Of a DNA stretch of 32,000 nt, positions 3,001-22,038 are shown in pieces. Both the position numbers and the translations under genes were made by a program. Under the pieces are notes generated by a model. The model did not search any database. It had not been told where the DNA came from and saw nothing but the letters and a program-made list of their open reading frames with translations. Position 1 is the first letter of the stretch. Every line of letters starts with the position of its first letter. The DNA lies in the NCBI GenBank assembly GCA_016700375.1, contig CP065016.1, positions 990,001 through 1,022,000 on the forward strand, given 5' to 3'. This stretch comes from Candidatus Saccharimonadota bacterium. GTDB lineage: Bacteria; Patescibacteriota; Saccharimonadia; Saccharimonadales; UBA4665.

Positions 3001-4942
3001 GAACGGTACGATTACTGGTACAGACCTTGCCAGTGCCACAATCCAATTCAGCAACATCGCGCAAAACGGTTGCTCAAGTAACCAAATCATGAAGTGGAAC
3101 GGTAGCGCTTGGGCTTGTGCGGCAGACGCAACTGGGGGGTCTATAAATTCGTTTGAAACCTTTGCAGCCTCTTCAGGTACAAGTCCGGTCGCAGACAGTG
3201 CGACCGATACACTCACCCTTAGCGGAGGCAGCGGCGTCACTATTACCGGAGATGGTACCACCGATACCATTACGGTGGCAGCCACGCTCGGTACTAGCAT
3301 AGACTCTGCCGAAATAGTCGACGGCACTATTGTGAGTGCCGACATTGCAGACGGCACAATCGCTAACACTGACCTAGCAAATTCGAGCGTCACAGTTAGC
3401 GCCGGCACAGGGCTAACAGGCGGTGGCGCGGTATCGCTTGGTGGCACTATCACGCTCAACCTTGCGAACGACTTTGGTGCCAGCATAGACAGCAGTGAAA
3501 TCACCAACGGTACAATTGTGTTTGCCGATGTCGCGGCCAATGGCTGTCTGAACGGCGAAATCTTCAAATACAATGGCAGCGCGTGGATGTGTGGCAGCGA
3601 CTTAGGGCTGACCAGCGAAGTCGATGGCAGCACGACTAACGAGCTGCAAAACCTCTTCCTTACTATTGCGACGCCCGATGCTGGCAACCCTGCAGCCGAC
3701 TCTACTACCGATACATTGACATTTGCCAACGGTAGCGGTGTGAGCATTACCAGTAACGGTACAACCGACACTATTACCGTTGCTGCCACGCTCGGCACCG
3801 ACATAACGAGCAGCGAGATTGCAGACGGAACAATTGCTGCAATAGATCTGGGCAGTGATAGTGTTACGGGTATAAAAATTCTGGATGGCGCAGTGGCGCT
3901 GGCTAAGCTTGCGACCGATAGCGTGAATGGCACGAAGATTGTTGATGGCACGGTCGCCAACGCCGACCTTGCATTTTCGAATGTGACCGTCAGCGCTGGC
4001 ACGGGTCTGACTGGTGGTGGGGCAATAAATTTGGGCGGTACAGTGACGCTCAATTCCAGCATTGGCACCAGCGTCGAAACAGGCGAAATAACCGATGGCA
4101 CCATTGCGGCCGCAGACATAAGTCCAGACGTCCTCGACTTTACCGAATTCAAAGACAGTATGGCCCTTGACGCGACAACAACTATTGCGCTTGGTGCCAA
4201 TGCTTTCAACATCAATCTTGATAGCACGGGTGATTTCGTGGTGCAGGATGCAGGTATTGCTGTCCTGACAGTAAACGATAGCGGCACTCTACTCTTCAAA
4301 AACTCCGCCGACAATGCCAATGCGTTTGTTGTTCAAGATGCCGCAAACTTGCCTATGTTCACGGTTGATACTATCTCGAATACAGTTGAGGTTGGGACAC
4401 TCGTCGATGATGCAGCCGATGTACTGCTTGTACTCGACGGAGTAAGCGGCTCGGATCCAACAGGCATAGCTGGCAGTATATATTACAATATAACAAATAA
4501 TAAATTCCGGTGCTATCAGGGGACCGCATGGGTTGATTGTGTGCCTGCCGCCTATAACGAATACGCATTTGCGGCAGGTCTAGAGACGTGGACCAATATG
4601 CCCGCAGCGGAGACACAGTTCTTGAATACACCTATACGATTACAAGTAGATTTAACTCGTGCCAGTGAGTTTCGGTTCGGCATAAGTCGCATGGCGGGGG
4701 CAGTAACGGCAGGAGCCGATTGTCGCGTCCAATATGCTACGACCCAAACAGGCACGTATGCTAACTTAGACGGAGCTACCGGTCCAGAAGTGGATGTAAG
4801 CGGTACGGCTGAATTGAAAAGTTCAGCCTGGACAGCCGTAACGGGCGCTGCCAAGTCAGACGTATATCTTCGCATAATGTGCAAACAGGGTAACGGCGTA
4901 GATGACCCACAGTTTAGAAATGCCTACATTCAGGTCCGATAA
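2..4942 (+). CDS. Giant repetitive cell-surface protein, C-terminal 1,646 aa (5' end lies outside the window)
   Basis: Frame 2 is open from nt 2. Hand translation of nt 2-466 gives SSGNTADLGSLLDNTDAQAISRTGNTISITG... with no stop, so the GTG listed at 467 is internal. The body is built from reiterated modules: YLDNTD(A/S)Q..(I/L)S..GNTLSI(T/S)G strands, 9 copies of a Cys-pair motif (LSCSxxQIxKWNGSAWxCAxD) and 5 copies of (NGY)LTSEVDGSTxNELQ. A unique Cys-containing C-terminal domain spans nt ~4454-4942. No function can be assigned from sequence alone. Confidence 0.85.
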   Translation, partial: SSGNTADLGSLLDNTDAQAISRTGNTISITGSASTIDLSPYLDNTDAQAISRTGNTLSITGNASTVDLASYLDNTDAQTLSLAGTTLTVSGGNSIDLAPINTDAQTLSLAGTNLSVSGGNTINIASINTDVLAGLSCATNQIAKWNGSAWACAADVDTVLNEAQVDAYANNNGYLTSEVDGSITNEIQSLSLVADVLSVSGGNSVNLASYLDNTDAQTLSWNSGAAILTIAGGNTANLSSLLDNTDAQAISKTGNTLSITGNASTVDLSGYLDNTDTLASLSCSNGQVAQWNGSAWVCANAAVDTDQQTLSLASNNLSISGGNSVSLASYLDNTDAQAISKAGNVLSISGNASTVDLSGYLDNTDSQALSLGGNTLSLVNGGSVNLAAYLDNTDVLAGLSCSNNQIPKWNGSAWTCAADVDTVLNEAQVDAYANNNGYLTSEVDGSTSNELQTLTWNSGTHILTISSGNTADLGSLLDNTDAQAISKTGNTLSITGNASTVDLASYLDNTDSQTLGLAGTTLTVSGGNSIDLAPINTDSQNLSLTGTTLNISGGTGVDIASINTDVLAGLSCSTNQIAKWNGSAWTCAADVDTNTDAQTLSLASNNLSILNGNSVSLAGYLDNTDSQTLSYNTGTHVLSISGGNTQDLSNLLDNTDAQAISRTGNTVSITGNASTVDLTPYLDNTDVLASLSCSNTQIAKWNGSAWACAADVDTVLTEGQVDTYVSNNGYLTSEVDGSTSNELQDLNLSSNILTITSLGSPTNIDLAGYLDNTDALAALSCVDGKIVKRVAGVWACGDDTDTVLSEAQVDTYVSNNGYLTSEVDGSTTNELQNVFQAVVTPDANNPAADSTTDSLTLANGSGVNITSNGTTDTITIAATLGTSISNAEIDDATLTFSKLAANSCNNGEIVKFNGSAWVCGTDSDTTLSEAAVEAYIFDADNTGTLSSGTLALGSLSYTGTLGDANIADALTISSAGSVDDAALSSNVTKLGQTIESGEITNGTITGTDLASATIQFSNIAQNGCSSNQIMKWNGSAWACAADATGGSINSFETFAASSGTSPVADSATDTLTLSGGSGVTITGDGTTDTITVAATLGTSIDSAEIVDGTIVSADIADGTIANTDLANSSVTVSAGTGLTGGGAVSLGGTITLNLANDFGASIDSSEITNGTIVFADVAANGCLNGEIFKYNGSAWMCGSDLGLTSEVDGSTTNELQNLFLTIATPDAGNPAADSTTDTLTFANGSGVSITSNGTTDTITVAATLGTDITSSEIADGTIAAIDLGSDSVTGIKILDGAVALAKLATDSVNGTKIVDGTVANADLAFSNVTVSAGTGLTGGGAINLGGTVTLNSSIGTSVETGEITDGTIAAADISPDVLDFTEFKDSMALDATTTIALGANAFNINLDSTGDFVVQDAGIAVLTVNDSGTLLFKNSADNANAFVVQDAANLPMFTVDTISNTVEVGTLVDDAADVLLVLDGVSGSDPTGIAGSIYYNITNNKFRCYQGTAWVDCVPAAYNEYAFAAGLETWTNMPAAETQFLNTPIRLQVDLTRASEFRFGISRMAGAVTAGADCRVQYATTQTGTYANLDGATGPEVDVSGTAELKSSAWTAVTGAAKSDVYLRIMCKQGNGVDDPQFRNAYIQVR

Positions 4943-5009
4943 CATTGAATTCACCTAGACCATTGCAGTCAATCGCGCTACAATTAACGTAAAGAAAAGT
5001 GAGGAGTAT

Positions 5010-5531
5010 ATGGCAGATACAATGGTAAAAGATGAAGACGAAAATACGAACGAAGTTAAATCAAACAGGGGTCGTTTTAGTATATCAGGTAAAAATGGTC
5101 TTGTAGCGGCTGCGGTAGGCCTTGCGCTTGTAGGGCTGGTAGGTACATTTGTGTTTTACCAGAAGTACCAAGATGTAAAAAGTGATCCGTCAAGCGCGCA
5201 GAAAGCGCAAAACAGTGCAGAAACGAAGCGAGTTCTGGACAAGCTCAAGCAAGTATTACGAATAGACGAGACAGAAGCACCGACCGTTGCACGGGTCGAA
5301 GACCCAGCCAAACTGCAAAAGGCAAACGCCGAGTTTTACAAAAACGTCCAGAAGGGCGACTACCTCGTCATTTTCCCCAAGCGCGCCATCATTTACCGTG
5401 AGTCAAACAACCAGCTCATTAATATCGCGCCCATCATAAACACGAACGGTACCACCACAGAAAACAAGGCGCCAGAAGCCAGCACGAAGACGCCAGCGAC
5501 GACAACCCCCACCAAGACCACCACCCGCTAG
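5010..5531 (+). CDS. Membrane-anchored hypothetical protein with a Thr/Pro-rich C-terminal tail
   Basis: ATG is preceded by GTGAGGAG (SD) at about -10. There is one N-terminal TM segment (LVAAAVGLALVGLVGTFVFY). The C-terminus is TKTPATTTPTKTTTR. Confidence 0.6.
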   Translation: MADTMVKDEDENTNEVKSNRGRFSISGKNGLVAAAVGLALVGLVGTFVFYQKYQDVKSDPSSAQKAQNSAETKRVLDKLKQVLRIDETEAPTVARVEDPAKLQKANAEFYKNVQKGDYLVIFPKRAIIYRESNNQLINIAPIINTNGTTTENKAPEASTKTPATTTPTKTTTR

Positions 5532-6029: not shown

Positions 6030-7130
6030 GGCTTAAGTCACATTTCGGGTTGCTGCTAATGCTTACTTTCAACTAAAACGGACAGGCTCGCTGTTCATAG
6101 TATCCTAAGGTTGCAAAACTAATTAGGAGAAAAACTATGAGAGCGAAACGCTGTCCGTTTTTTCATTGTACCAACGTAAAGAAGAATGGTATACGCCGTG
6201 GCTTACAACGCTATGTTTGTGAAGATTGCGGTGCATCATGGCAAAGTAAACCACGACCAGACAGACGTCTAAAAAAACTCTGGCATCAGTATGCATTTGA
6301 TGGCCGAACAGTCCGTGATCTCGCCCGTTCGCATAAGGTCGGTGAGACACGTATACGATCATGTCTCGCTGCATATGTGCCACCAGCTATTGTCCACAAG
6401 CCTCGTGTGGTTGCCGTCGTCATGGATGTCACCTACTTTGATGGCTGGGGTATGTTAGTCGTTATTGACCCTACTGCGAATACAGCCCTGGGCGAGAACA
6501 CTGTCCTCTACTATGCCGTTCTGGAGGGGACAGAGCGAACCAGGGATTATGAGGTCGCAACAGATACACTTGAGTCCTTAGGCTACTGCATCATCATGGC
6601 AACCATTGACGGGCGTAGAGGCGTGAAGACAATGCTAGAAGATCATGCCATACCTGTACAGTACTGTCAGTTTCATCAACTCATGGCTATGACCAGATGC
6701 CTCACTCGTCGACCCAGGCTTGCGCAGAACGTTGCACTGAGACACATAGCACTTACCCTCACGAGAACTGACATCACCACGTTTGCAGCTGCCTTGGCGG
6801 ATTGGTACGAACAGTACGGCTCATGGCTCAAAGAGCGAGATGACATAACAGGAAGATACGCTCATGAACGTACCAGGCGAGCCTACTTCAGCCTCGTCCG
6901 CAACCTGGACAATTTGTTTACCTACCAGCACGACTACATGCAAGCGTACCAACGAGATACTGGCAAGAACCCAGCCAATACCACCAACGCATTAGAAGGT
7001 AGATTTGGTGTCTGGAAAGACAGGCTAACCGCACACAGAGGAACCTCAAAACAGCGTACAATTACAATCCTCCGTAGTTTCTTCTCTGAGAGAACAGATT
7101 AACTGAGCCACCCGAAATGTGACTTAAGCC
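6030..7130 (+). mobile_element. Intact insertion sequence, IS1/IS1595-like (1,101 bp)
   Basis: Perfect 21-bp terminal inverted repeats: GGCTTAAGTCACATTTCGGGT at 6030-6050 and its reverse complement at 7110-7130. These are flanked by an 8-bp direct repeat ACAATTTC (6022-6029 and 7131-7138). A single transposase ORF lies inside. Confidence 0.9.
6137..7102 (+). CDS. DDE transposase with N-terminal zinc ribbon (IS1/IS1595-like)
   Basis: SD AGGAG lies upstream. The N-terminus CPFFHCTNVKKNGIRRGLQRYVCEDCGASW matches the CxxC...NG...QRYxCxxC zinc-ribbon pattern of IS1 InsA and IS1595-type transposases. Candidate catalytic residues are D in VVMDVTYF, D in ATIDGRRG and E in TNALEGRFGVWK (E-x6-K). Family placement between IS1 and IS1595 is not resolved. 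Confidence 0.8.
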   Translation: MRAKRCPFFHCTNVKKNGIRRGLQRYVCEDCGASWQSKPRPDRRLKKLWHQYAFDGRTVRDLARSHKVGETRIRSCLAAYVPPAIVHKPRVVAVVMDVTYFDGWGMLVVIDPTANTALGENTVLYYAVLEGTERTRDYEVATDTLESLGYCIIMATIDGRRGVKTMLEDHAIPVQYCQFHQLMAMTRCLTRRPRLAQNVALRHIALTLTRTDITTFAAALADWYEQYGSWLKERDDITGRYAHERTRRAYFSLVRNLDNLFTYQHDYMQAYQRDTGKNPANTTNALEGRFGVWKDRLTAHRGTSKQRTITILRSFFSERTD

Positions 7131-8657: not shown

Positions 8658-9977
8658 TTCTAGTTCTCAATGCTATGGCCTCATGACAAAATAATCCCCA
8701 CATCCTAAGCCGACACCCCAATCGTATAGTTCCACTCACCATGAAAGTCTTCTTGCCGCACGTTTAGTGCGGCGAGCTCTTTGTCAGATATCTTGATGCC
8801 TTTTTCATAGATATTCGTATCGGCTACGGCTGTGACTGTCAGCCCTGATGTGGTGGTTGTGCTGGAGATAAGTCGGATTATAGTTTCTAGACTAGTCAAT
8901 GGCTTCGCTCTCCAATTGATGGATATGTATGAGAAGAGCTTATGCTCTATGGCATTCCACTTGCTCGTAGCTGGAGGGTAATGCCTGATGGTAATCGGTA
9001 TACCTATCTCATCGACCAACTCCTGTAATTCCTTCTTCCACAACCTGTTCCGTGAACCATTACTCCCGCCACCGTCACAAGTGATCAGGAGACGCTTTGC
9101 ATTGGGATACAGTTTACGACCATGTTCCTTCCACCACCGTCGGATACTTTCAACAGCAAAGGCTGAGGTATCGGCACTGGTGCCGACATTCACGAACCCG
9201 GTGTTTGTGAGTCGATCATAGATGCCGTACGGCACCGCCTTGCCGTCGGCGAGAGATGGAAAGTCGTAGACATTGACGACTTCTGCGCTACCTTTTGGCT
9301 GCCATTCCCGGCCATTGTTCTTGAAGTTGCCGAGGAGTTCTTTTTTCTTACAATCAACTGAGATAACAGGGTCGCCGGTTGCTAGAAAGTCTTTGATGGT
9401 AGTATTGATCAATTGAAACTGACCGTCCCGGTCAGGGTGTGAAACACCCTCAACGTTCTTCTTATTTGCCTGTAGGGAGAAGCCTTTTGCTTTGAGGATA
9501 CGGCCAATTGTACGGTAGCTGACTGCATGACCGGCTTTGTTGAGAGTGCTCTCAAGCCTACTGAGTGATTTGGTAGTCCACTGTATTGGGCTCATTGGAT
9601 CCCCCTTGGGATCGAGTAGTGCTTCAAGATCAGTTTCCAGGGTTGGGTCAGTATCCGTCAGTGTCTTTCTGCCGCCACCAGGTAGACGGATACGGTCAAG
9701 GAGTGGTGGGGCTTTACTGTCAGCTATCCCTCTGGAGACCGTCTCACGATCTACGCTGGCAACCCTGGCAACCTGTGAGATACCACCGAGCCCTAGCTTA
9801 CGAGCTTCTGTCCCGAGATATATACGCCATTGGCGTTCATTGAGAACAGGGCGTAGTAGTTCATATTGGTTTTCTTGGGTGATCGTATTTGTTTCTGTCA
9901 TACCTAACAGTATGGCAGATTGAGGCTATGTTGTGGTGATTATTTTGTCAGGAGGCCTATAGCATGAAGAACTAGAA
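8658..9977 (-). mobile_element. ISAzo13-family insertion sequence (about 1.3 kb)
   Basis: Imperfect ~47-bp terminal inverted repeats: 8658 ttctagttctcaatgctatggcctcatgacaaaataatc... versus the reverse complement of 9931-9977, ttctagttcttcatgctataggcctcctgacaaaataatc... An intact transposase lies inside. The outer boundaries could extend a few bp (cttacatt / cttcacatt). No clear target duplication was seen. Confidence 0.8.
8705..9901 (-). CDS. ISAzo13-family DDE transposase
   Basis: The 398-aa ORF carries hallmark blocks of the ISAzo13 / Rhodopirellula-type DDE transposase: LPGGGRK, PIQWTTKS, HPDRDGQF, ISVDCKKKELLGNFKNNGREW, AVPYGIYD, LITCDGGGSNGSR, YPPATSKWNAIEHKLFS and GEWNYTI. Confidence 0.9.
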   Translation of the reverse strand: MTETNTITQENQYELLRPVLNERQWRIYLGTEARKLGLGGISQVARVASVDRETVSRGIADSKAPPLLDRIRLPGGGRKTLTDTDPTLETDLEALLDPKGDPMSPIQWTTKSLSRLESTLNKAGHAVSYRTIGRILKAKGFSLQANKKNVEGVSHPDRDGQFQLINTTIKDFLATGDPVISVDCKKKELLGNFKNNGREWQPKGSAEVVNVYDFPSLADGKAVPYGIYDRLTNTGFVNVGTSADTSAFAVESIRRWWKEHGRKLYPNAKRLLITCDGGGSNGSRNRLWKKELQELVDEIGIPITIRHYPPATSKWNAIEHKLFSYISINWRAKPLTSLETIIRLISSTTTTSGLTVTAVADTNIYEKGIKISDKELAALNVRQEDFHGEWNYTIGVSA

Positions 9978-10037
9978 CAGGTAATGTGAAGCTGTGTACA
10001 TCCGAAGGTATATCTGTTAAAATCGTGCTGTGACCTT

Positions 10038-10170
10038 CGGGGAGTGGCTTGAGTCCGGTAGCGTGAGATCCGCCAGTGGCGGACCGCAAGGGAGTCCACT
10101 CTTGAAAGCTGTGCTTTCAAAGATGTGGCGACGGGGTCGCCGAAAGTGACCGCGGTTTGGTTCTACCGCG
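10038..10170 (+). repeat. tRNA-derived three-hairpin module, copy A (pseudo 5' half of tRNA-Pro plus hp1-hp2-hp3)
   Basis: CGGGGAGTGGCttgAGTCCGGTAGCGt matches 23 of 27 nt of the acceptor/D-arm of tRNA-Pro(UGG), which lies 174 nt downstream. It is followed by hp1 GATCCGCC-agt-GGCGGACC (10067-10085), GCAAG, hp2 TTGAAAGC-tgt-GCTTTCAA, hp3 GGTCGC-cgaaa-GTGACC, and a final hairpin CGCGGT-n8-ACCGCG. Confidence 0.75.
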
Positions 10171-10211
10171 TTCATAGAATAGGGTACAATACATTTACGT
10201 CGTCAATTTGT

Positions 10212-10288
10212 CGGGGAGTGGCGCAGTCCGGTAGCGCACTCGGTTTGGGACCGAGGGGTCGCAGGTTCAAATCCTGTCTCCCCGACCA
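10212..10288 (+). tRNA. tRNA-Pro (anticodon UGG), CCA encoded
   Basis: Hand-folded cloverleaf: CGGGGAG/CTCCCCG acceptor, GCGC/GCGC D-stem, CTCGG-TTTGGGA-CCGAG anticodon arm, GCAGG-TTCAAAT-CCTGT T-arm, A73, CCA. Confidence 0.9.
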
Positions 10289-10327
10289 TAAGAAAATACC
10301 TCAGCAGAGCTGGGGTGTTTTCTTATG
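10289..10327 (+). terminator. Intrinsic terminator-like hairpin after tRNA-Pro(UGG)
   Basis: ataAGAAAAtaCCTCAGCagaGCTGGGGtgTTTTCTTat has a GC core stem extended by A-tract/U-tract pairing. Confidence 0.7.
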
Positions 10328-10417
10328 TCAGTGAGATGTGGTGCGAGCTTGCGCGCAGGTTCGTGGACGAGGAACGGAGCAAAAAACGAAAGTTTACTTT
10401 TGTTTTTAGCGAGTACC

Positions 10418-10456
10418 GCAGGGAAGAGGGCGAAGCCCGATAATCCTGTCCCCTCG
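10418..10456 (+). repeat. Degenerate copy of the tRNA-Pro(UGG) T-arm/acceptor 3' strand with a hairpin inserted in the T-loop
   Basis: GCAGG-gaagaGGGCgaaGCCCgatAAT-CCTGT-CCCCTCG compares with the tRNA GCAGG-TTCAAAT-CCTGT-CTCCCCG. Confidence 0.65.
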
Positions 10457-10520
10457 TGGGATACTACGCCGCATCTTCCCTCATGCAATACAGGTGTTAT
10501 TTACGGCTTTTCACCCAGGG

Positions 10521-10529
10521 TGCTATAAT
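10521..10529 (+). promoter_or_regulatory. Extended -10 promoter element (TGCTATAAT) for tRNA-Pro(CGG)
   Basis: TGnTATAAT lies 18 nt upstream of the tRNA. The following leader ACCTCTGTT is shared with the tRNA-His promoter region (16214-16229). Confidence 0.6.
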
Positions 10530-10547
10530 TACCTCTGTTAATTTCAC

Positions 10548-10624
10548 CGGGGTGTAGCGCAGCTTGGTAGCGCGCGTCGTTCGGGACGACGAGGTCGTGG
10601 GTTCAAATCCCGCCACCCCGACCA
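10548..10624 (+). tRNA. tRNA-Pro (anticodon CGG), CCA encoded
   Basis: CGGGGTG/CACCCCG acceptor, CGTCG-TTCGGGA-CGACG anticodon arm, GTGGG-TTCAAAT-CCCGC T-arm, A73, CCA. Confidence 0.9.
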
Positions 10625-10661
10625 TACAAAAGACTCGGCACGTGCCGAGTCTTTTGTATGG
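10622..10661 (+). terminator. Perfect 40-nt palindromic terminator-like hairpin after tRNA-Pro(CGG)
   Basis: CCATACAAAAGACTCGGCAC|GTGCCGAGTCTTTTGTATGG overlaps the encoded CCA. Confidence 0.75.
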
Positions 10662-10780
10662 CATAGCCGGGTTTGGACCCACGACCAGAGATTCGCGCAG
10701 CAAAGATCGTAGGTCGTGAAGGTCGCGTAGCGGAGAAAGGAAACGGAAGCTTGCTCACGTCCCTTTCGGAGTGGAGGAGC

Positions 10781-10805
10781 GCAGCGATAATCCTGCCACC
10801 CCAAC
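10781..10805 (+). repeat. Degenerate copy of a tRNA-Pro T-arm plus the tRNA-Pro(CGG) acceptor 3' strand
   Basis: GCAGcgatAATCCTGC-CACCCCaac. The acceptor strand CACCCC matches the adjacent CGG tRNA. The AATCCTG T-loop/stem matches the UGG tRNA. Confidence 0.55.
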
Positions 10806-10871
10806 TACGCTAGTGCTTATTGCAAAATTCCCCATGCACTGTAGTATGAAGCATATAACACGGAGGGTACT

Positions 10872-11705
10872 ATGTCGCCAGAAACGAATAACGATACTCA
10901 GAAAAACGATGAAGCCGAGGTAGCGGCGGTCGCAAAAACAAAACGCCTGCCCAGGAAGGTGCTCTATGCTTCGGTCGCGCTCATAGTAGTAGGGCTAGCA
11001 GTACTGGTTGGGTTTTTGCTGGGCGGCAAGGCTACTGCACCGGCAAAAACAGCACAAAATAAGATAACCGCTTCGGAAAAGAAACAACCAGCTCAAACGA
11101 CCACAGAAAAAAAGATTGAAGAGACAACATCATCTAGCTGTGGGAGTGAAAAGACAGCATTCAGGAACGAATCTTTTGGCGTACAGTTCTGCTATCCAAC
11201 CAGCTGGGGAACGGCGAGCGTACAAGATGCAAAAGTTGCGGCTGCAGACACTGGCCATCGTGAGGTTGTGCGCTTTTCGTCAAACCCATATGTTATTGTG
11301 GGGGGCATGAGCGATGACTGGTCTACCTCTGTCGGTCGCGGTGTTGGCTGTTTGGAGCCGGACAATGTTGTCCCCCCGCTTAGCGCATACGACACGAGCT
11401 GGCATGGCATAGAAGGCTCCGGCGCCGATGTTTCGTACGCAGTCCGAAGCCTACCTTCTTCCGCCGGAGGCTACAGTGTTCAAGAATCAGTTTCTAACTT
11501 GCTCGTCTCTGGCGTATGTGTCCAGGGACATAAAGTTATTAGCGGTTCGCGCTACCGCGTTGTTGCCGTAAATTATGCTCGTGACTTTGCGCCAGCGTCG
11601 GGCATAACCACCCCCGCCCAGCACATGGCAGAGCCAAACGTCTTGTTCTCTACAGAACTGCGCACCCAGTACGACGCGCTTCTTGCCAGCCTTGCTGCCT
11701 ACTAG
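10872..11705 (+). CDS. Membrane-anchored extracytoplasmic hypothetical protein
   Basis: SD GGAGGG lies upstream. There is a single TM (VLYASVALIVVGLAVLVGFLL) followed by a Cys-containing globular region. No family was recognised. Confidence 0.6.
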   Translation: MSPETNNDTQKNDEAEVAAVAKTKRLPRKVLYASVALIVVGLAVLVGFLLGGKATAPAKTAQNKITASEKKQPAQTTTEKKIEETTSSSCGSEKTAFRNESFGVQFCYPTSWGTASVQDAKVAAADTGHREVVRFSSNPYVIVGGMSDDWSTSVGRGVGCLEPDNVVPPLSAYDTSWHGIEGSGADVSYAVRSLPSSAGGYSVQESVSNLLVSGVCVQGHKVISGSRYRVVAVNYARDFAPASGITTPAQHMAEPNVLFSTELRTQYDALLASLAAY

Positions 11706-15702: not shown

Positions 15703-16056
15703 TTGGGTGACGCGCCTGAAAAATGCGACGGTGGCGGCGATGAAGAGACTAGCTTTAGTCTGACTGACGATGGCGTGAACGGTTGGACACTGAACGGCGC
15801 TACGTGTACTGGGGCTGAGATAACTCGTGAAGGCAGTTCGGTAACCATGGAAGTCGTGCCGGGTGCGGATGTGAAGTGTACATTCGTAAACCAAAAGAAC
15901 ACCATTCCGCAAGTGCTCGGCGCAGTTGACCCGCCAAAGCTAGAAAATACCGGCGGTAGTGTGTGGGTGGCGGTGAGTATGAGTCTGACAGTTATGGGGC
16001 TAGCCATTCTGACTGCGTTAAGCGACCGACGTCGTAACCAAACGATGGCCGCGTAG
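15703..16056 (+). pseudogene. C-terminal remnant of a sortase-anchored surface protein (LENTG sorting signal)
   Basis: It ends with PPKLENTGG, a hydrophobic stretch (SVWVAVSMSLTVMGLAILTAL) and a basic tail (SDRRRNQ), which is a classical cell-wall sorting signal. No signal peptide is present. The strong SD GAGGAGG (15659-15665) serves an ATG at 15677 in a different frame that stops after 28 codons. The gene is therefore probably frameshifted or truncated. Confidence 0.45.
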
Positions 16057-16100
16057 TCACCCCAGACGAAATAAACAGAGAAGAAATAGCATTCCCAAGT

Positions 16101-16126
16101 AAAAAAGCCGATTTTTCGGCTTTTTT
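16101..16126. terminator. Bidirectional intrinsic terminator
   Basis: AAAAAAGCCGAtttttCGGCTTTTTT. Confidence 0.75.
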
Positions 16127-16213
16127 ACGTATAAAACGGCATGTAAAAAGCTATTTGAGTGTGCTGTTTCACGTAAGATTTTTCGCATGATTGAAATTTT
16201 GTCATATTTCGAC

Positions 16214-16219
16214 TATAAT
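16214..16219 (+). promoter_or_regulatory. -10 element (TATAAT) for tRNA-His
   Basis: TATAAT lies 14 nt upstream of G-1. The leader cACCTCTGTT is shared with the tRNA-Pro(CGG) promoter. Confidence 0.55.
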
Positions 16220-16233
16220 CACCTCTGTTTTAT

Positions 16234-16311
16234 GGCGGATGTAGCTCAGTTGGTTAGAGCGCCAGTTTGTGGCACTGGAGGCCGTGGGTTCAAGCCCCAT
16301 CATTCGCCCCA
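16234..16311 (+). tRNA. tRNA-His (anticodon GUG) with genome-encoded G-1 and CCA
   Basis: G-1 precedes the GCGGATG/CATTCGC acceptor. There is a CCAGT-TTGTGGC-ACTGG anticodon arm, a GTGGG-TTCAAGC-CCCAT T-arm and C73 opposite G-1. Confidence 0.9.
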
Positions 16312-16493
16312 AGATAAAGCCCCTGCGAAAGCGGGGGTTTTATCTTGGCGGCGTGGTGGCTTGAACACACGCCCAAGGCCGTGGGTGAGACCCGCCAGTG
16401 GCGGGTCGCAAGACAATCTTCTCTTGAAAGCTACGCTTTCAAAGATGAAGTTGTGGGGTCGCCGAAGGTGACCAAGCCCCATCATTCGCCCCA
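16312..16493 (+). repeat. tRNA-His-linked unit 1 (182 bp): terminator hairpin + three-hairpin module + copy of the tRNA-His 3' end
   Basis: The terminator is AAGATAAAGCCCCTGCgaaaGCGGGGGTTTTATCTT. The module runs 16347-16472, with hp1 GACCCGCC-agt-GGCGGGTC, hp2 TTGAAAGC-tac-GCTTTCAA and hp3 GGTCGCC-gaa-GGTGACC. This is followed by an exact copy of CAAGCCCCATCATTCGCCCCA (16473-16493 matches 16291-16311). Confidence 0.85.
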
Positions 16494-16847
16494 AGATAAA
16501 GCCCCTGCGAAAGCGGGGGTTTTATCTTGGCGGCGTGGCGGCTTGAACACACGCCCAAGGCCGTGGGTGAGACCCGCCAGTGGCGGGTCGCAAGACAATC
16601 TTCTCTTGAAAGCTATGCTTTCACGCATTTCGCACTTTGAGCTCATGTGCATTTTCTCCTTGAAGCACGGAAGGAGCCGTACTAGGGTACGGCGAGTGAG
16701 TACTGGAAAGGAAAAATGTGCAGGAGTCAAAGAAGCAAGCGGTGCAACCAGCTTTGCTGGTTGGCAGGCTGGCTGGTGTGAAATACGTGGCTTTCAAAGA
16801 TGAAGTTGTGGGGTCGCCGAAGGTGACCAAGCCCCATTATTCGCTCC
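16494..16847 (+). repeat. tRNA-His-linked unit 2 (unit 1 sequence interrupted by a 166-bp MITE), ending in a degenerate tRNA-His 3' copy
   Basis: Near-identical to unit 1 apart from the insertion at 16624-16789. It ends in CAAGCCCCATtATTCGCtCC (16828-16847), followed by a third, degenerate terminator hairpin. Confidence 0.85.
16624..16789. mobile_element. MITE-like insertion (166 bp) with imperfect TIRs and a 7-bp target duplication
   Basis: The termini are CGCATTTCGCAC and, at the other end, the reverse complement of CGTATTTCACAC (10 of 12 match). It is flanked by the direct repeat GCTTTCA (16617-16623 and 16790-16796). Unit 1 provides the uninterrupted empty site. Confidence 0.75.
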
Positions 16848-16933
16848 TGTAAAGCCCCTGCGAAAGCGGGGACTTTATCTTGGGAAAAGATGGGCCGCGT
16901 AAGGTATCAACATATACTGCGGAGGTGTAGTTT

Positions 16934-17914
16934 TTAGTGTCCAACGGGCTTGTCATCGGTGAAAGTTTCGCGGTGTCTATATAGGTCGTAGGCTTTGTGG
17001 TCGGCGGGTAGCGGCGGCTGAGGGGTAATGCTACGTGGCCACAGGCGATGAAATCGCACACTTGCGAGCTCTGCTCCAAGCAAAAATACCTGTGCTTGCA
17101 GGTAGAGCCAAAACAATATAGCAAGTACCACTGCAAACTGGGCCGTTAGGCCAGTCTGCGATTTCAACTGGTTGGCAATAATATAGCTACCGAGCGTCTG
17201 CAGAACGAGGAACCCTACGGCGGCAAAAAGTGCACCGTACACATTTACCACAGGATGCCGTCGCGCCGATGACCCAAATGTATACACCCCCCAAAACACA
17301 CTAAAGAGCGCAATGAACCCGCCCGTGCCTAGCAACATGCGTGCCCATAGCTCATGCTCTGCTGCCGTGGTATACCCGATGAGTGTGGCTGCGGCAATGA
17401 ACCCTACTCCGGCAAAAGCGATTATCCCAAAGCTCTTGAACGTTGAGTTAGGGAAGCCGGCTCTGCGGTTTCGCGGTACGGACCATACGTGGTTGAGGGC
17501 GTGTTGCACTGCGTGTGCTACGCCTTTGGTGCCGTACAGTGCAATCAGTAAGCCCAGGAAAACGGCTAGGCCACTTTTGCTTGGAGTTTTGATACTGTCT
17601 GCAAGGGTATTGCCTATGGCCGGAAAATAGCTCGTAGCGTTACGCAAAAAAGTTTCACGAAGCGTTGGGTCATTTTGGGATAATATTTGCACAATGCCGG
17701 TGCCGACTATAAGGAGTGGGAATATAGATAAAAACCCATAGTAGGCAATAAGAGTGGCCTGGTAGCCAGCTTCATCATCACTATGTTTTTTGAGTACGGC
17801 GTAGGGAAACGAGAACAAAGATTTTTGCTGAAAGTGGTCAAGCCAGTCTATTTTTCGTTCTATGAAATTTCTTTTTTTCACCGCGGATGCCATGGTTACA
17901 GAGTACAACTTCAC
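16934..17914 (-). CDS. YihY/BrkB-family inner-membrane protein
   Basis: A six-helix membrane protein with family-typical blocks YYGFLSIFPLLIV and LFWLYLQAQVFLLGAE. The start may be the internal ATG at 17893 (MASAVKK). Confidence 0.75.
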   Translation of the reverse strand: MKLYSVTMASAVKKRNFIERKIDWLDHFQQKSLFSFPYAVLKKHSDDEAGYQATLIAYYGFLSIFPLLIVGTGIVQILSQNDPTLRETFLRNATSYFPAIGNTLADSIKTPSKSGLAVFLGLLIALYGTKGVAHAVQHALNHVWSVPRNRRAGFPNSTFKSFGIIAFAGVGFIAAATLIGYTTAAEHELWARMLLGTGGFIALFSVFWGVYTFGSSARRHPVVNVYGALFAAVGFLVLQTLGSYIIANQLKSQTGLTAQFAVVLAILFWLYLQAQVFLLGAELASVRFHRLWPRSITPQPPLPADHKAYDLYRHRETFTDDKPVGH

Positions 17915-17943: not shown

Positions 17944-18020
17944 TGGCGCCCCGGGCAGGACTCGAACCTGCGACCTTAGGCTTAGAAGTCCTCTGCTCTA
18001 TCCAGCTGAGCTACCAGGGC
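17944..18020 (-). tRNA. tRNA-Arg (anticodon UCU), CCA encoded
   Basis: The reverse complement folds as a GCCCTGG/CCGGGGC acceptor, GCTC/GAGC D-stem, CTTCTAA anticodon loop and GCAGG-TTCGAGT-CCTGC T-arm. The anticodon stem is atypical: only three Watson-Crick pairs, flanked by G:A and A:G. Confidence 0.75.
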
Positions 18021-18115
18021 ATACAAGCGCCACTTGAGAGTATAGCGAAATCATGTAGAAAGTTAAAACCCAGTTGGCTAGAATAGATGCCGCATACGTC
18101 TTTTACTCAAAGCTT

Positions 18116-18139
18116 CCCAACTAAGCTACCAGGGAGCGC
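18116..18139 (-). pseudogene. Fragment resembling the 5' acceptor/D-arm of the tRNA-Arg gene
   Basis: The minus strand reads GCGCTCCCTGGTAGCTTAGTTGGG, compared with the tRNA 5' end GCCCTGGTAGCTCAGCTGGATAG. It lies ~95 nt upstream in the same orientation, and no complete cloverleaf follows. Confidence 0.55.
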
Positions 18140-18198
18140 TGCACTTCTAATAGCCTTCACATTTCGAATATATGAATTAGATATACTATACTAATATT

Positions 18199-18861
18199 AT
18201 GGTAAACAAAAAATCAAAAGCTTTATCGCTGAGGCGGCAGGGTTATTCCTATGTACTAATACATGAAAAGACAGGCGTTCCGTTAAGCACAATGAGCTAT
18301 TGGTTTCGGAATATGCAGTTCACGCCAAATGCTCAGGTGCGGGAAAGGATGCAAAATGGCTCAAAAAGAGCTGGATTAGTTCGTCGCAGACAAAGGATTG
18401 CAGATACAGCCGCACAAATAGGAAGAGGCATCACAGATATAGGCACATTGACGGAAAGGGATCTTTGGATGCTGGGTCTCGGGTTGTATATTGGGGAAGG
18501 AGCTAAAACTACTGAACAAGTAAGAGTAGCAAATTCAGACCCCGAGGTCATACGTTTGATAATGGCCTGGTTGCGTGGGCTTGGTGTTCCAGACAAAAAT
18601 ATAAATTTGGCTATACACATTTATCCCGATACTAGCCCGGAGCTTAGTAAGGACTTCTGGCTGAAGACAACTGGCCTATCTGAGAGCAATTTTGGCTGGG
18701 TTAGTATAGATAAGCGGGAAAATAAAAGCCGAAAGGCTGCCGGGAAACTACCATATGGCACTGCCCACATTATTTTGCGCGCAAGAGGGGAGCAGAAATA
18801 CGGAGTGCAGTTTTTTCGACGTCTAAAAGGATGGATGCAAGGAGTCTATAATCAGGTATAA
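18199..18861 (+). CDS. Free-standing LAGLIDADG-like (single-motif) homing-endonuclease-like protein with N-terminal HTH
   Basis: The N-terminal HTH-like segment is RRQGYSYVLIHEKTGVPLSTMSYWF. The central block DLWMLGLGLYIGEGAK fits the LAGLIDADG dodecapeptide, with an acidic residue in the GEG position. TATACT lies 6 nt before the ATG. The assignment rests on the motif only. Confidence 0.5.
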   Translation: MVNKKSKALSLRRQGYSYVLIHEKTGVPLSTMSYWFRNMQFTPNAQVRERMQNGSKRAGLVRRRQRIADTAAQIGRGITDIGTLTERDLWMLGLGLYIGEGAKTTEQVRVANSDPEVIRLIMAWLRGLGVPDKNINLAIHIYPDTSPELSKDFWLKTTGLSESNFGWVSIDKRENKSRKAAGKLPYGTAHIILRARGEQKYGVQFFRRLKGWMQGVYNQV

Positions 18862-18871
18862 TGAGAAACAA

Positions 18872-18946
18872 GCGGGTGTCGTATAACGGCTATTATAGGG
18901 GCTTTCCAAGCCCGGGACGGGGGTTCGACTCCCCCCACCCGCACCA
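18872..18946 (+). tRNA. tRNA-Gly (anticodon UCC), CCA encoded
   Basis: GCGGGTG/CACCCGC acceptor, TTTCCAA anticodon loop on a GGGC/GCCC stem, GGGGG-TTCGACT-CCCCC T-arm. The D-stem is short (3 bp). The discriminator is A rather than the U recalled for B. subtilis tRNA-Gly. Confidence 0.8.
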
Positions 18947-19100
18947 TGCAAAAGGCCTTTCCGAAAGGAAAGGTTTTTTGCATGGTTCTGGGCTGGGTGA
19001 GGCGAACGCGAGCGCCAGTGGCGCTCAGCCGCCCTTGCCCTGCGACCATGGGAGCAGGGTTTCACCGAAGGTGAAAGGTCGACTCCCCCCACCCGCACCA
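18947..19100 (+). repeat. tRNA-Gly-linked unit 1 (154 bp): terminator hairpin + divergent three-hairpin module + exact copy of the tRNA-Gly 3' end
   Basis: The terminator hairpin is CCATGCAAAAGGCCTTTCCgaaaGGAAAGGTTTTTTGCATGG. It is followed by GGGTGAG, hp1 GAGCGCC-agt-GGCGCTC, hp2' CCCTGC-n10-GCAGGG, hp3 TTTCACC-gaa-GGTGAAA, and then GGTCGACTCCCCCCACCCGCACCA (the tRNA reads GGTTCGACTCCCCCCACCCGCACCA). Confidence 0.85.
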
Positions 19101-19248
19101 TGCAAAAGGCCTTTCCGAAAGGAAAGGTTTTTTGCATGGTTCTGGGCTGGGTGAGGCGAACGCGAGCGCCAGTGGCGCTCAGCCGCCCTTGCCCTGCGAC
19201 CATGGGAGCAGGGTTTCACCGAAGGTGAAAGGTCGACTCCCCCCACCA
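19101..19248 (+). repeat. tRNA-Gly-linked unit 2, identical by eye to unit 1 and truncated within the acceptor copy
   Basis: Identical by eye to unit 1 over its whole length. It ends ...GGTCGACTCCCCCCACC followed by unrelated sequence (aaatatatg). Confidence 0.85.
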
Positions 19249-19502
19249 AATATATGAGGGGCTCGCCACATTCTGCGGTCCCGCTTCTGCGTGTGGTTAG
19301 GCATAGCCTAACCGGCAGAGAGCCTTGCGGTTTGCCGCTGGCAAACTTCACCCTCAACGGCTCGTATTCGGAATAAATCCGAATACGGCCTACTCCCCCT
19401 GAAGCTCGGACGAACGCCTCGTAACCGGTCAATAAGGTCCTACCTTTGTTTAAAATGTTGTACCAGTAACATATTTTGTATAAATTATGATATAATATAC
19501 CT

Positions 19503-21693: not shown

Positions 21694-21766
21694 GGAGGCT
21701 TATTATATCACTAGTGGTATATTACACTCAATTCCGACAAGCAATCAAGCAATGGGCAAAGCGAAA

Positions 21767-21859
21767 GACTTGCCAGGGGCGAGTCGCAAGGCAACCTTCC
21801 GGGCAAGCTATGCTTGCCGCAGTGAAGTTGCGGGGTCGCAGGATGCGACAAGGTCCTCC
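21767..21859 (+). repeat. Orphan copy of the three-hairpin module (no adjacent tRNA)
   Basis: hp1 GACTTGCC-agg-GGCGAGTC, then GCAAG, hp2 GGCAAGC-tat-GCTTGCC, GTGAAGTTGCGGG, hp3 GTCGCA-gga-TGCGAC, and CAAGGTCCTCC. The terminal GACAAGGTCCTCC is repeated at 21948-21960. Confidence 0.75.
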
Positions 21860-22038
21860 ATTTTGTGTCAGCGAAGCGACGGAGCCGACAGGCGAGCTTT
21901 AGGGCAGGAGGAGAGCTTATGCGGATTCATTCCGAATAAGCGAGGAGGACAAGGTCCTCCTAAACAGTTCCGCAGACAAAATTACTATATGCTGCTCATT
22001 CGCTACGGGTTACACTATAGGTAGCAATAAGGGGTTAC

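Follow-up and report, generated by a model that had tools for sequence, protein, structure and literature searches.

What are the sequences that follow the histidine tRNA gene in a member of the Candidatus Saccharimonadota, and how did they come to be there? The stretch in question, referred to below as the window, comprises 32 000 nt of contig CP065016.1 (assembly GCA_016700375.1, positions 990 001 to 1 022 000), and near its middle an intact tRNA-His gene is followed by tandem units that each end in a copy of the 3' end of that gene. An earlier note on this DNA had proposed, as one explanation, miniature integrative elements flanked by attachment-site (att) duplications. The evidence assembled here leads elsewhere: the array is the Saccharibacteria counterpart of the tyrT/RtT repeats of Escherichia coli, sharing its plan with other units found downstream of tRNA genes in this group, and at its centre stands a strongly structured element of 87 nt, designated E. 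Positions are those of the window, L numbers denote the loci compared, and features are collected in Table 1.

The tandem repeat behind tRNA-His

Two units of 182 bp lie 3' of tRNA-His, after which the tRNA 3' end and terminator appear a third time, in degenerate form. Positions 16291-16441 recur as 16473-16623 (151 nt, 99 % identity, period 182) and 16435-16492 as 16790-16847 (97 % identity, spacing 355); a 34-nt terminator block occurs three times, at 16315, 16497 and 16850, and the 21-nt 3' end of tRNA-His has an exact second copy at 16473 and a third, with three mismatches, at 16828. These coordinates agree with the triple occurrence of 3' end plus terminator reported earlier (16291, 16473 and, in degenerate form, 16828), and they account for the spacing given with it, 182 bp and then 355 bp, the additional 173 bp being a 166-bp element plus a 7-bp target duplication. 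The repeat is real and is neither chance nor an assembly artefact, because the units are not identical, being set apart by single-nucleotide polymorphisms (SNPs) and by the 166-bp element, and because the units are also present in the independent assemblies L113 and L115. A promoter search found none inside the tRNA-His units, and a terminator precedes each of them.

The 166-bp insert has imperfect terminal inverted repeats and is flanked by a duplicated 7-bp target, GCTTTCA (16617-16623 and 16790-16796); it is polymorphic for presence, the corresponding unit of the near-identical strain L113 being without it, and a diverged second copy (~79 % identical) lies near tRNA-Arg in L115 (238-474). 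Because L113 has the same unit without the insert and L115 has a diverged copy elsewhere, the insert is an ordinary miniature inverted-repeat transposable element (MITE) that landed in unit 2. A pattern search with its left end found no other copy within the window. Relatedness of E or of the MITE to the ends of the two insertion sequence (IS) copies of the window was considered and rejected, the pattern search having found no second MITE end and E having been compared by eye only.

Anatomy of one unit

Mapping of all flanks onto the tRNA in both orientations gives the following order: terminator, antisense copy of tRNA positions 78 to 47, a 3-nt apex, sense copy of positions 46-55, the 87 nt of E, sense copy of positions 58-78 (C56 to CCA) and the next terminator. 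The antisense tRNA-His copy extends the palindrome of the terminator in register, and the segment 16288-16366 therefore folds as a hairpin of ~37 bp. In a read-through transcript, this hairpin would be predicted to sequester the 3' third of the real tRNA-His; in an alternative modelled fold, pairing between the antisense copy and the pseudo-3' end further downstream would close the unit into a multi-hairpin domain.

This map departs from the one first proposed, in which the T-stem sequence GTGGG was retained and the TT of the T-loop was replaced by a single hairpin, hp3. The GTGGGG beside hp3 belongs to E, other copies of which read CGGGG or ACGGG, and because the true copy of the T-stem 5' strand, AGGCCGTGGG, sits upstream of the whole of E, it is all 87 nt (16386-16472) that replace the TT. 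Neither the inverted tRNA copy at 16346-16374 nor the arrays behind tRNA-Gly and both tRNA-Pro genes had figured in that account.

Element E as a structured family

The consensus of 12 aligned copies of E has three hairpins, namely P1 (CCGCC-AGU-GGCGG, extended and with a UG..CA closure), the long and variable P2, and P3 (GUCGCC-GAA-GGUGAC, with a conserved G-U pair). Among these 12 copies, RNAalifold found compensatory changes in 17 of the 30 pairs. In the alignment of 23 strong copies to the covariance model R1, 96.2 % of cells are paired, as against 34-44 % when the partner is slid, and double changes occur in 21 of the 30 pairs, a figure that none of 500 shuffles equalled. Between 27 and 30 of the 30 pairs are present in every copy, however far (down to 57 % identity) it has diverged from that of His. 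With 36 G-U pairs against 10 A-C mismatches, the structure is to be placed on the tRNA-sense strand, in the form of either RNA or single-stranded DNA. The hairpins are kept by selection on that strand, which may serve either the element or the host. The subfamilies of E cluster neither by tRNA identity nor by insertion position, and thus E has moved between contexts.

Besides this covariation, E shows the marks of a discrete insert: conserved ends, homologous sites that are filled in one genome and empty in another, and pairs of interrupted pseudo-copy and intact tRNA. Searches of Rfam with the His, Pro and L080 regions, at the gathering score and at an E-value of up to 10, returned only tRNAs and sub-threshold noise, and no family matched E. 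When 185 579 species genomes were scanned with a pattern, 109 loci matched, mainly by chance; homologues of E came from ~10 Saccharibacteria metagenome-assembled genomes (MAGs); a strict pattern run on metagenomes gave four loci/contigs only, and the scan of viral contigs gave three matches, all chance, none of which carries E. What emerges is a new covarying structured element with ~25 known copies, a working covariance model and no Rfam match in the stretches searched. Three more specific identities were rejected: a hammerhead ribozyme (CUGAUGA in L023), the motif not being conserved in other copies; a group I or group II intron, there being no model match and 87 nt being too small; and a scaffold with flanking guide of the TnpB/IscB type (E plus the 21-nt tRNA tail), since a nuclease gene is not nearby and the replacement of 2 nt does not fit.

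E and partial tRNA copies in Saccharibacteria

In Saccharibacteria, E always points the same way as the tRNA and is always found within a fragmentary, decayed copy of a tRNA whose intact gene lies next to it; there it interrupts the D-arm, the anticodon-arm or the T-loop. There are two arrangements. The downstream type, seen with His and Gly in the window, Leu (L063), Lys (L080, L023) and Arg (L112), runs from the intact tRNA through a terminator, an antisense copy and a short sense copy to E within the T-loop and then the remainder of the tRNA. In the upstream type (Table 1), a copy with its own promoter-like sequence is split by E and followed by a few sense nucleotides, a short antisense copy that crosses the site of E uninterrupted, and then the promoter and intact gene. 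Relative to the intact copy, E replaces ~2 nt (TT, CG, CA, GC or GT), and its left flank ends in G or a run of G. The antisense copies are always on the side that faces the intact gene. Upstream-type duplications take in promoter sequence (L107, L077) and are therefore DNA-level events, not cDNA; an origin of the units as snap-back cDNA made by a reverse transcriptase is disfavoured on the same ground.

Four of the five tRNA genes in the window carry E or a related unit. The search of the window for the module beside other tRNA genes, one of the checks suggested at the outset, found equivalent arrays behind tRNA-Gly and both tRNA-Pro genes, and the motif pair of E behind tRNA-Gly and upstream of tRNA-Pro. 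In each tRNA-Gly unit, a terminator and the antisense 3' end of tRNA-Gly are accompanied by a variant form of E and by the tRNA tail, copied exactly; the third tail (19233-19247) is truncated at TCGACTCCCCCCACC, and the two units of the window compare with one in L017 and L113.

For the His locus, comparative loci were gathered by a homologue search with the YihY/BrkB-like neighbour, to which protein the neighbour identities in Table 1 refer. Its best homologues are without exception from Saccharimonadales, as are the MAGs that supplied related loci, which places the window in that group. The diverged unit of L116 and L117 keeps the antisense T-loop, a hairpin tipped with CCAGUGG and CAAGCCCCAT, and its outer helix differs between the two loci yet pairs in both (GUGAGG with CUUCAC or CCUCAC). 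No empty site was found at the syntenic locus, L113, L115, L116 and L117 all having the unit and L114, which is without it, being rearranged. Variation in copy number or arrangement is seen among L113, L115, L055, L116, L117 and L017. A unit has thus long been fixed at the His locus, while close relatives differ in how many copies they have and in how these are arranged. The earlier note had held that an array both fixed and invariant, with no empty sites, would speak against mobility; the outcome was of that kind, the array being fixed at the locus, though its copy number varies.

Several observations concern the contigs themselves. Those of the relatives L055, L113 and L115 break at tRNA-trailer repeats. 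The 6.9-kb contig of L055 (JBASZU010000145.1) runs from an E-interrupted tRNA-His to a tRNA-Pro(cgg) preceded by an E-bearing pseudo-copy, and both of its ends fall in tRNA/E repeats, whence it follows that the modules fragment short-read assemblies of Saccharibacteria. Beyond breaking assemblies, the modules mimic att sites and the borders of genomic islands, and the pseudo-tRNAs that they contain may be miscalled by annotation pipelines. In L110 (1143-1260), E and a degenerate tRNA-His tail lie downstream of a YhhQ-like gene, after which the G+C content jumps from ~50 % to ~70 %; this is a probable chimeric metagenome contig, or else a transfer junction.

E-like insertions in Clostridia

Application of R1 to pattern loci first taken as chance brought out E-like copies in Clostridia. 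One Lachnospiraceae MAG (L050) has a copy with all three hairpins that scores 49.8 bits, a value somewhat inflated, as are those of the other Clostridia matches, by pre-selection with the search pattern, outside which the extended helices lie. Three contigs of another Lachnospiraceae MAG (L041, L061, L062) have intergenic copies, e.g. between infB and rbfA, and Anaerotruncus sp. G3 has two (L009, L020). The Clostridia copies have neither a nearby tRNA gene nor an Rfam match. The Anaerotruncus element lies antisense in the 3' part of parA (L009 6321-7259, L020) and shifts the frame of the last ~30 codons; the parA-bearing sequence is present in at least two copies in that genome. A plasmid of Subdoligranulum variabile has a homologous parA without the element, i.e., an empty site. 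The filled site reads ...CCCTGG/GGTGCGGGTCGCCAGTGGCGACC...GCCGAAGGTGAGAC/CATGGGC and the empty one ...GCCAT/TAGGAT/CATGGGC, with the left flank of the filled site ending in a run of G, as in the tRNA copies. This comparison of filled and empty sequences shows that E is an insertion element.

Repetitive extragenic palindromic sequences and bacterial interspersed mosaic elements (REP/BIME), Rickettsia palindromic elements and MITE-like repeats are small palindromic non-coding insertion elements. E is like the REP/BIME type in being multi-copy, non-coding and hairpin-rich, in lying between or within genes, in having filled and empty sites, and in having subfamilies common to several loci. It differs in having neither terminal inverted repeats nor a target duplication, ~2 nt of the target being replaced, and in its strictly tRNA-derived context in Saccharibacteria, and no partner transposase, of the REP-associated tyrosine transposase (RAYT) or other kind, has been identified.

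Likeness to the tyrT repeats of E. coli

At the E. coli tyrT locus, a unit of 178 bp is repeated about three times, each time with the last 19 nt of tRNA-Tyr. As a positive control, the Rfam model RtT (RF00391; rttR) recovered four E. coli copies behind tyrT and tyrV, with a 178-bp period and scores of 133-137 bits. When an E. coli unit is mapped in the same manner as the units described above, it proceeds from an antisense copy of tRNA-Tyr positions 77 to 56 (GGGGAAGGATGAGAAGCTTCGA) to a sense T-stem/loop (GGTTCGA), a structured insert and the sense sequence AATCCTTCCCCCACCACCA; in the Rfam consensus, closure is by pairing of GGGGAAGG with CCUUCCCC. One tyrT unit yields the rtT RNA, a real processed product (cited in PMC3318445), and RtT RNAs are expressed in Klebsiella (PMC4147364).

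The two systems have in common tandem units of ~180 bp behind a tRNA gene that each end in the tRNA 3' end, from T-loop to CCA; an opening antisense copy of the T-arm followed by a short direct copy of the T-stem and a structured insert; and a closing helix around that insert, formed by the antisense T-arm copy and the 3' strand of the T-arm. They differ in phylum, in that each Saccharibacteria unit has an intrinsic terminator of its own with the antisense copy in register with it, in the sequence of the E core, and in the range of sites that E occupies, which extends to the D-arm, the anticodon region and the upstream side of tRNA genes. Membership of RF00391 itself fails, the model giving no match at the gathering score or at an E-value of up to 10 in 16000-17100, in 9900-10900 or in L080. 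The core of E has no primary similarity to RtT (z about 0); R1 run with filters off ranks the four RtT copies first, at only 9.5-13 bits.

A second class of unit, here called type-2, stands closer to RtT in sequence. Type-2 units share GAGGAGCGNAGCGA..TAATCC with the 3' part of RtT (local match z 6.3-6.6, 0 of 200 shuffles), and their 3' pattern is GAGGAGCG[A/C/T]AGCGA(T)..TAATCC. The type-2 unit behind tRNA-Pro(tgg) also resembles Clostridiales-1 RNA (RF01699) in its closing helix and its ..AAUCC.. end, a weak match of 22 bits that is sub-threshold against a gathering score of 48. The paper that describes that family records no tRNA association (PMC2864571).

The tyrT repeat architecture is not an enterobacterial curiosity, as the same plan turns up in a phylum far removed, whose genomes are very small. 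The kind of structure was known, and unexplained, in E. coli; what is new here is the strongly structured insertion element at its centre.

Origin of the arrays and alternative explanations

On balance it is probable, though well short of certain, that the arrays are RtT-type pseudo-tRNA trailer repeats that carry the non-coding insertion element E and have been amplified by unequal recombination. The partial tRNA copies would be products of fold-back and of tandem template switching, for which the hairpins of tRNA genes and terminators would provide the sites, as is suggested by the terminator palindromes in register, by antisense copies that face the intact gene and by the fold-back of tRNA-Arg without E. 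E would enter 3' of a run of G (among conserved runs, that of the T-stem 5' strand is the most common) and would survive only in a redundant tRNA copy beside an intact gene, because in a working copy it would destroy the tRNA. Slippage or unequal homologous recombination, first between the 58-bp blocks of 3' end and terminator and later between whole units, would then lengthen or shorten the array, a process that would yield the units of 99-100 % identity and the alleles of one versus two units. The units would be transcribed only as leaders or by read-through; a transcript begun at the tRNA-His promoter and so prolonged would be closed by pairing of its antisense and sense segments and would stop at a terminator of its own. 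Three of these proposals are concrete enough to be tested: the read-through RNA, the unequal recombination and the insertion beside runs of G.

A number of points weigh against this explanation. Replacement rather than duplication of ~2 nt of target fits no standard transposition scheme, and the enzyme or mechanism that inserts E is hypothetical. Two findings can be explained by host function no less readily than by selfish persistence: the near-perfect pairing in old copies with decayed flanks (e.g. 21762-21850), and the conservation of a unit behind tRNA-His in different genera. The E of L055 lies in a promoter-proximal and otherwise perfect tRNA-His, and no intact copy is visible because the contig ends. 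An origin by fold-back at the terminator is not general, because the E. coli antisense copy is not contiguous with the terminator. Read-through and RNA folding of the units are predictions of the model, and the scores of the Clostridia copies carry the inflation described above.

The main rival, possible if rather unlikely, is that the units are kept by the host as a functional tRNA-trailer RNA. By analogy with rtT, a small RNA domain with E as its functional core would be derived from the tRNA-His transcript, the tRNA-like 3' end and antisense arm would serve processing or stability, and selection would keep or dose the arrays. Such a role would suit the retention of 27-30 of 30 pairs in all copies of E, old ones with decayed flanks included; the preference for G-U over A-C (36 to 10) on the tRNA-sense strand; the orientation of E with the tRNA, within its transcription unit as leader or trailer; the conservation of the tRNA-His unit in L116 and L117, where the outer helix changes in step; and the small genome (about 1.2 Mb in a complete relative). 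It would also have a precedent in the rtT RNA of E. coli, a real processed and expressed product (PMC3318445, PMC4147364). It accords poorly with the lack of an internal promoter in units that are each preceded by a terminator, with differences in copy number and position between close relatives, with the splitting of one E copy by the MITE, with the disruption of parA by Clostridia E-like copies, and with the movement of E subfamilies between tRNA contexts.

A broader and improbable proposal is that E and the RtT-type units together constitute an RNA-level hitch-hiker on tRNAs, common to Patescibacteria, Clostridia and Enterobacteria, in which E would interrupt the working tRNA-His of some strains (L055) and be excised from its T-loop or tolerated there, and the antisense and sense arms would act as a processing or guide helix. 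If true, E would be a new class of bacterial tRNA intervening sequence, and the 45-year-old puzzle of the tyrT repeat would gain a function.

Closely allied, and quite improbable, is the notion that E is an intervening sequence of functional tRNAs, excised from or tolerated in the T-loop, with the arrays as fossils of intron-containing genes. The case comes from L055 alone, where the promoter-proximal tRNA-His is interrupted by E and its exons otherwise match the intact gene exactly, and where in silico removal of 85 nt leaves a cloverleaf that ARAGORN calls as tRNA-His, with the T-loop UCCAAGC. Introns have been reported in tRNAs of the candidate phyla radiation (CPR; PMC8172020, PMC8694215), including group I introns (PMC8172020), and E resembles these in being an insertion within a tRNA gene of a CPR bacterium. 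Unlike them, it comprises 87 nt with no group I core (no match to Intron_gpI, nor to any group I intron or ribozyme family of Rfam), is found also in the D-arm and T-loop, and is carried by pseudogenes whose exons would not be cleanly rejoined: 2 nt being replaced, clean removal cannot restore T54-Psi55. Every other E-bearing copy is visibly decayed and has an intact neighbour, and the L055 contig ends 35 nt past the CCA, inside a repeat, so that an intact copy may follow there too.

Very improbable is the reading from which this work set out, namely that a tyrosine integrase supplied in trans inserted miniature integrative elements one after another, the tRNA 3' end (CAAGCCCC) being the att core. 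As at classical tRNA att sites and in integrative elements that target tRNA genes, the direct repeat of the tRNA 3' end begins in the T-loop and the distal copy is degenerate. There the likeness ends. At attL and attR junctions, tRNA sequence would not flank the element on both sides, as it does E, nor would an antisense copy be present; the identity spans the whole terminator, which lies inside the repeat; and the units have neither integrase nor cargo. The absence of an integrase, already remarked in the earlier note, was borne out by Pfam and NCBIfam scans of the larger open reading frames (ORFs) of the window, which found housekeeping genes, a sortase, surface proteins and two transposases, and no tyrosine or serine recombinase in the 32 kb. 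The syntenic locus has no empty site, the feature being fixed there across genera, in every syntenic relative, even where the neighbouring protein is only 65 % identical. Copies of the same element also interrupt the D-arm or the anticodon region or precede tRNA genes, none of the viral contigs has it, and the E. coli tyrT locus shows the same architecture as the array. The integrase explanation of the tRNA-His array is thus wrong, being largely refuted. The last alternative that the note had offered, capture of a tRNA 3' end by a structured element, comes close to the observed anatomy. Finally, a repeat collapsed or duplicated in metagenome assembly has a negligible probability: the contigs of L055, L113 and L115 do break at the repeats, but SNPs and a MITE with its target duplication distinguish the units, the same units occur in independent assemblies, and the Gly array is an independent case.

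Features of the window and of related loci

Table 1. Features at the tRNA-His locus, elsewhere in the window and at related loci (positions in the window unless a locus is named)
Feature	Locus	Position	Strand	Remarks
tRNA-His promoter, sigma-70-type, TTGAAA-17-TATAAT	window	16191-16219	+	11/12 consensus matches
Intact tRNA-His(gtg), encoded CCA	window	16235-16311; G-1 encoded at 16234	+	ARAGORN and Rfam (67 bits)
Quasi-palindrome, ~37 bp stem: tRNA 3' third, terminator hairpin and inverted tRNA copy	window	16288-16366	+	Fold -59.6 kcal/mol, z -11.7
Terminator-like hairpin 1, beginning with CCA, then TTTTATCTT	window	16309-16348	+	
Antisense copy of tRNA-His positions 78 to 47, unit 1	window	16346-16374	+	GGCTTGAAC = exact antisense T-loop
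Direct copy of variable loop and T-stem 5' strand, AGGCCGTGGG (positions 46-55), unit 1	window	16376-16385	+	
Element E copy 1, replacing T54-T55	window	16386-16472	+	R1 109 bits; covariation
Second copy of tRNA 3' end (C56 to CCA, exact) and terminator	window	16473-16530	+	
Antisense copy and direct T-stem copy, unit 2	window	16528-16567	+	
Element E copy 2, 5' part, interrupted	window	16568-16623	+	
MITE-like insertion, 166 bp, imperfect terminal inverted repeats (CACGCATTTCGCAC / GTGTGAAATACGTG)	window	16624-16789	+	Strong fold
Element E copy 2, 3' part	window	16797-16827	+	
Third, degenerate tRNA 3' end and terminator, no antisense copy after	window	16828-16884	+	Same degenerate form in L113; not degenerate in L115
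tRNA-Gly(tcc) array: two 154-bp units (18925-19078 = 19079-19232, 100 %) and truncated third 3' end (19233-19247)	window	18872-19247	+	
E copy in T-loop of decayed pseudo-tRNA	window	19265-19352	-	R1 61 bits
Pseudo-tRNA-Pro 5' part (positions 1-25), E (10064-10150) and decayed anticodon arm, upstream of intact tRNA-Pro(tgg)	window	10039-10170	+	R1 95 bits
Type-2 (RtT-related) unit behind tRNA-Pro(tgg), ending in degenerate copy of its 3' end	window	10289-10460	+	z 6.6 against E. coli RtT
Type-2 (RtT-related) unit behind tRNA-Pro(cgg): antisense 66 to 46, then GAGGAGCGCAGCGAT/AATCCTGCCACCCC	window	10625-10806	+	z 6.3
E (21762-21850) in decayed tRNA-Gln-like flanks, and type-2 unit, upstream of glyA	window	21762-21960	+	R1 63 bits
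Type-2 unit, upstream of glyA	window	21851-21960		
Type-2 unit	L080	about 6700-6850		
tRNA-Arg(tct) partial 5' copy, then short antisense copy	window	18118-18135	-	Without E
His locus, near-identical strain	L113			At least two units, no MITE, same degenerate terminal copy
His locus, neighbour 89 % identical	L115			Terminal copy keeps intact tRNA tail
His locus, related MAG	L055			E in T-loop of promoter-proximal, otherwise perfect tRNA-His; contig ends 35 nt past CCA
His locus, neighbour 65 % identical	L116 (complete genome CP064993), L117			Intact tRNA-His, terminator, one diverged unit
His locus, rearranged, transposase adjoining	L114			tRNA-His with different terminator, no unit
Pro(tgg), upstream type	window, L111			E at 25/26
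Lys(ctt), upstream type	L023			E at 25/26
Arg(tct), upstream type	L112			E at 25/26 on 5' side; tRNA resumes in T-loop
Pro(ggg), upstream type	L018, L053			E in anticodon loop
Pro(cgg), upstream type	L055			E in anticodon loop
Gln(ctg), upstream type	L077			E in anticodon stem
Glu(ttc), upstream type	L107			E in T arm

The two transposase genes are of different families. One (6137-7102) is an IS256-family Zn-binding variant (NF048019), a related IS256-type gene adjoining tRNA-His in the rearranged L114; the other (8705-9901) encodes an ISAzo13-family DDE transposase (PF07592) and has its start 160 bp away from the E copy that precedes tRNA-Pro. Within 17944-18198, the tRNA-Arg(tct) gene on the minus strand has the YihY/BrkB-like gene directly after it, with no terminator, and the partial 5' copy upstream. 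Between tRNA-Arg and tRNA-Gly lies an ORF of 220 aa (18199-18861) whose N-terminal part resembles an HTH (helix-turn-helix) and which also has a LAGLIDADG-like motif (LGLGLYIGEGAK); neither Pfam nor NCBIfam gives a match. The ORF is conserved at the same position in L017 and L113 (98 %), has a 43 %-identical copy in L117, and at its 3' end overlaps the promoter region of tRNA-Gly. In L016, from a Planctomycetaceae MAG, a chance pattern match falls in a dense array of 22 tRNA genes in 4 kb (1325-5444), with an R1 score of 16.8 bits across tRNA-His. Towards the start of the window, an ORF of 1491 aa (467-4942) is built of numerous diverged repeats, in families of 56-219 nt, among which ..KWNGSAW.C.. 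blocks are conserved, and probably encodes a repetitive surface protein.

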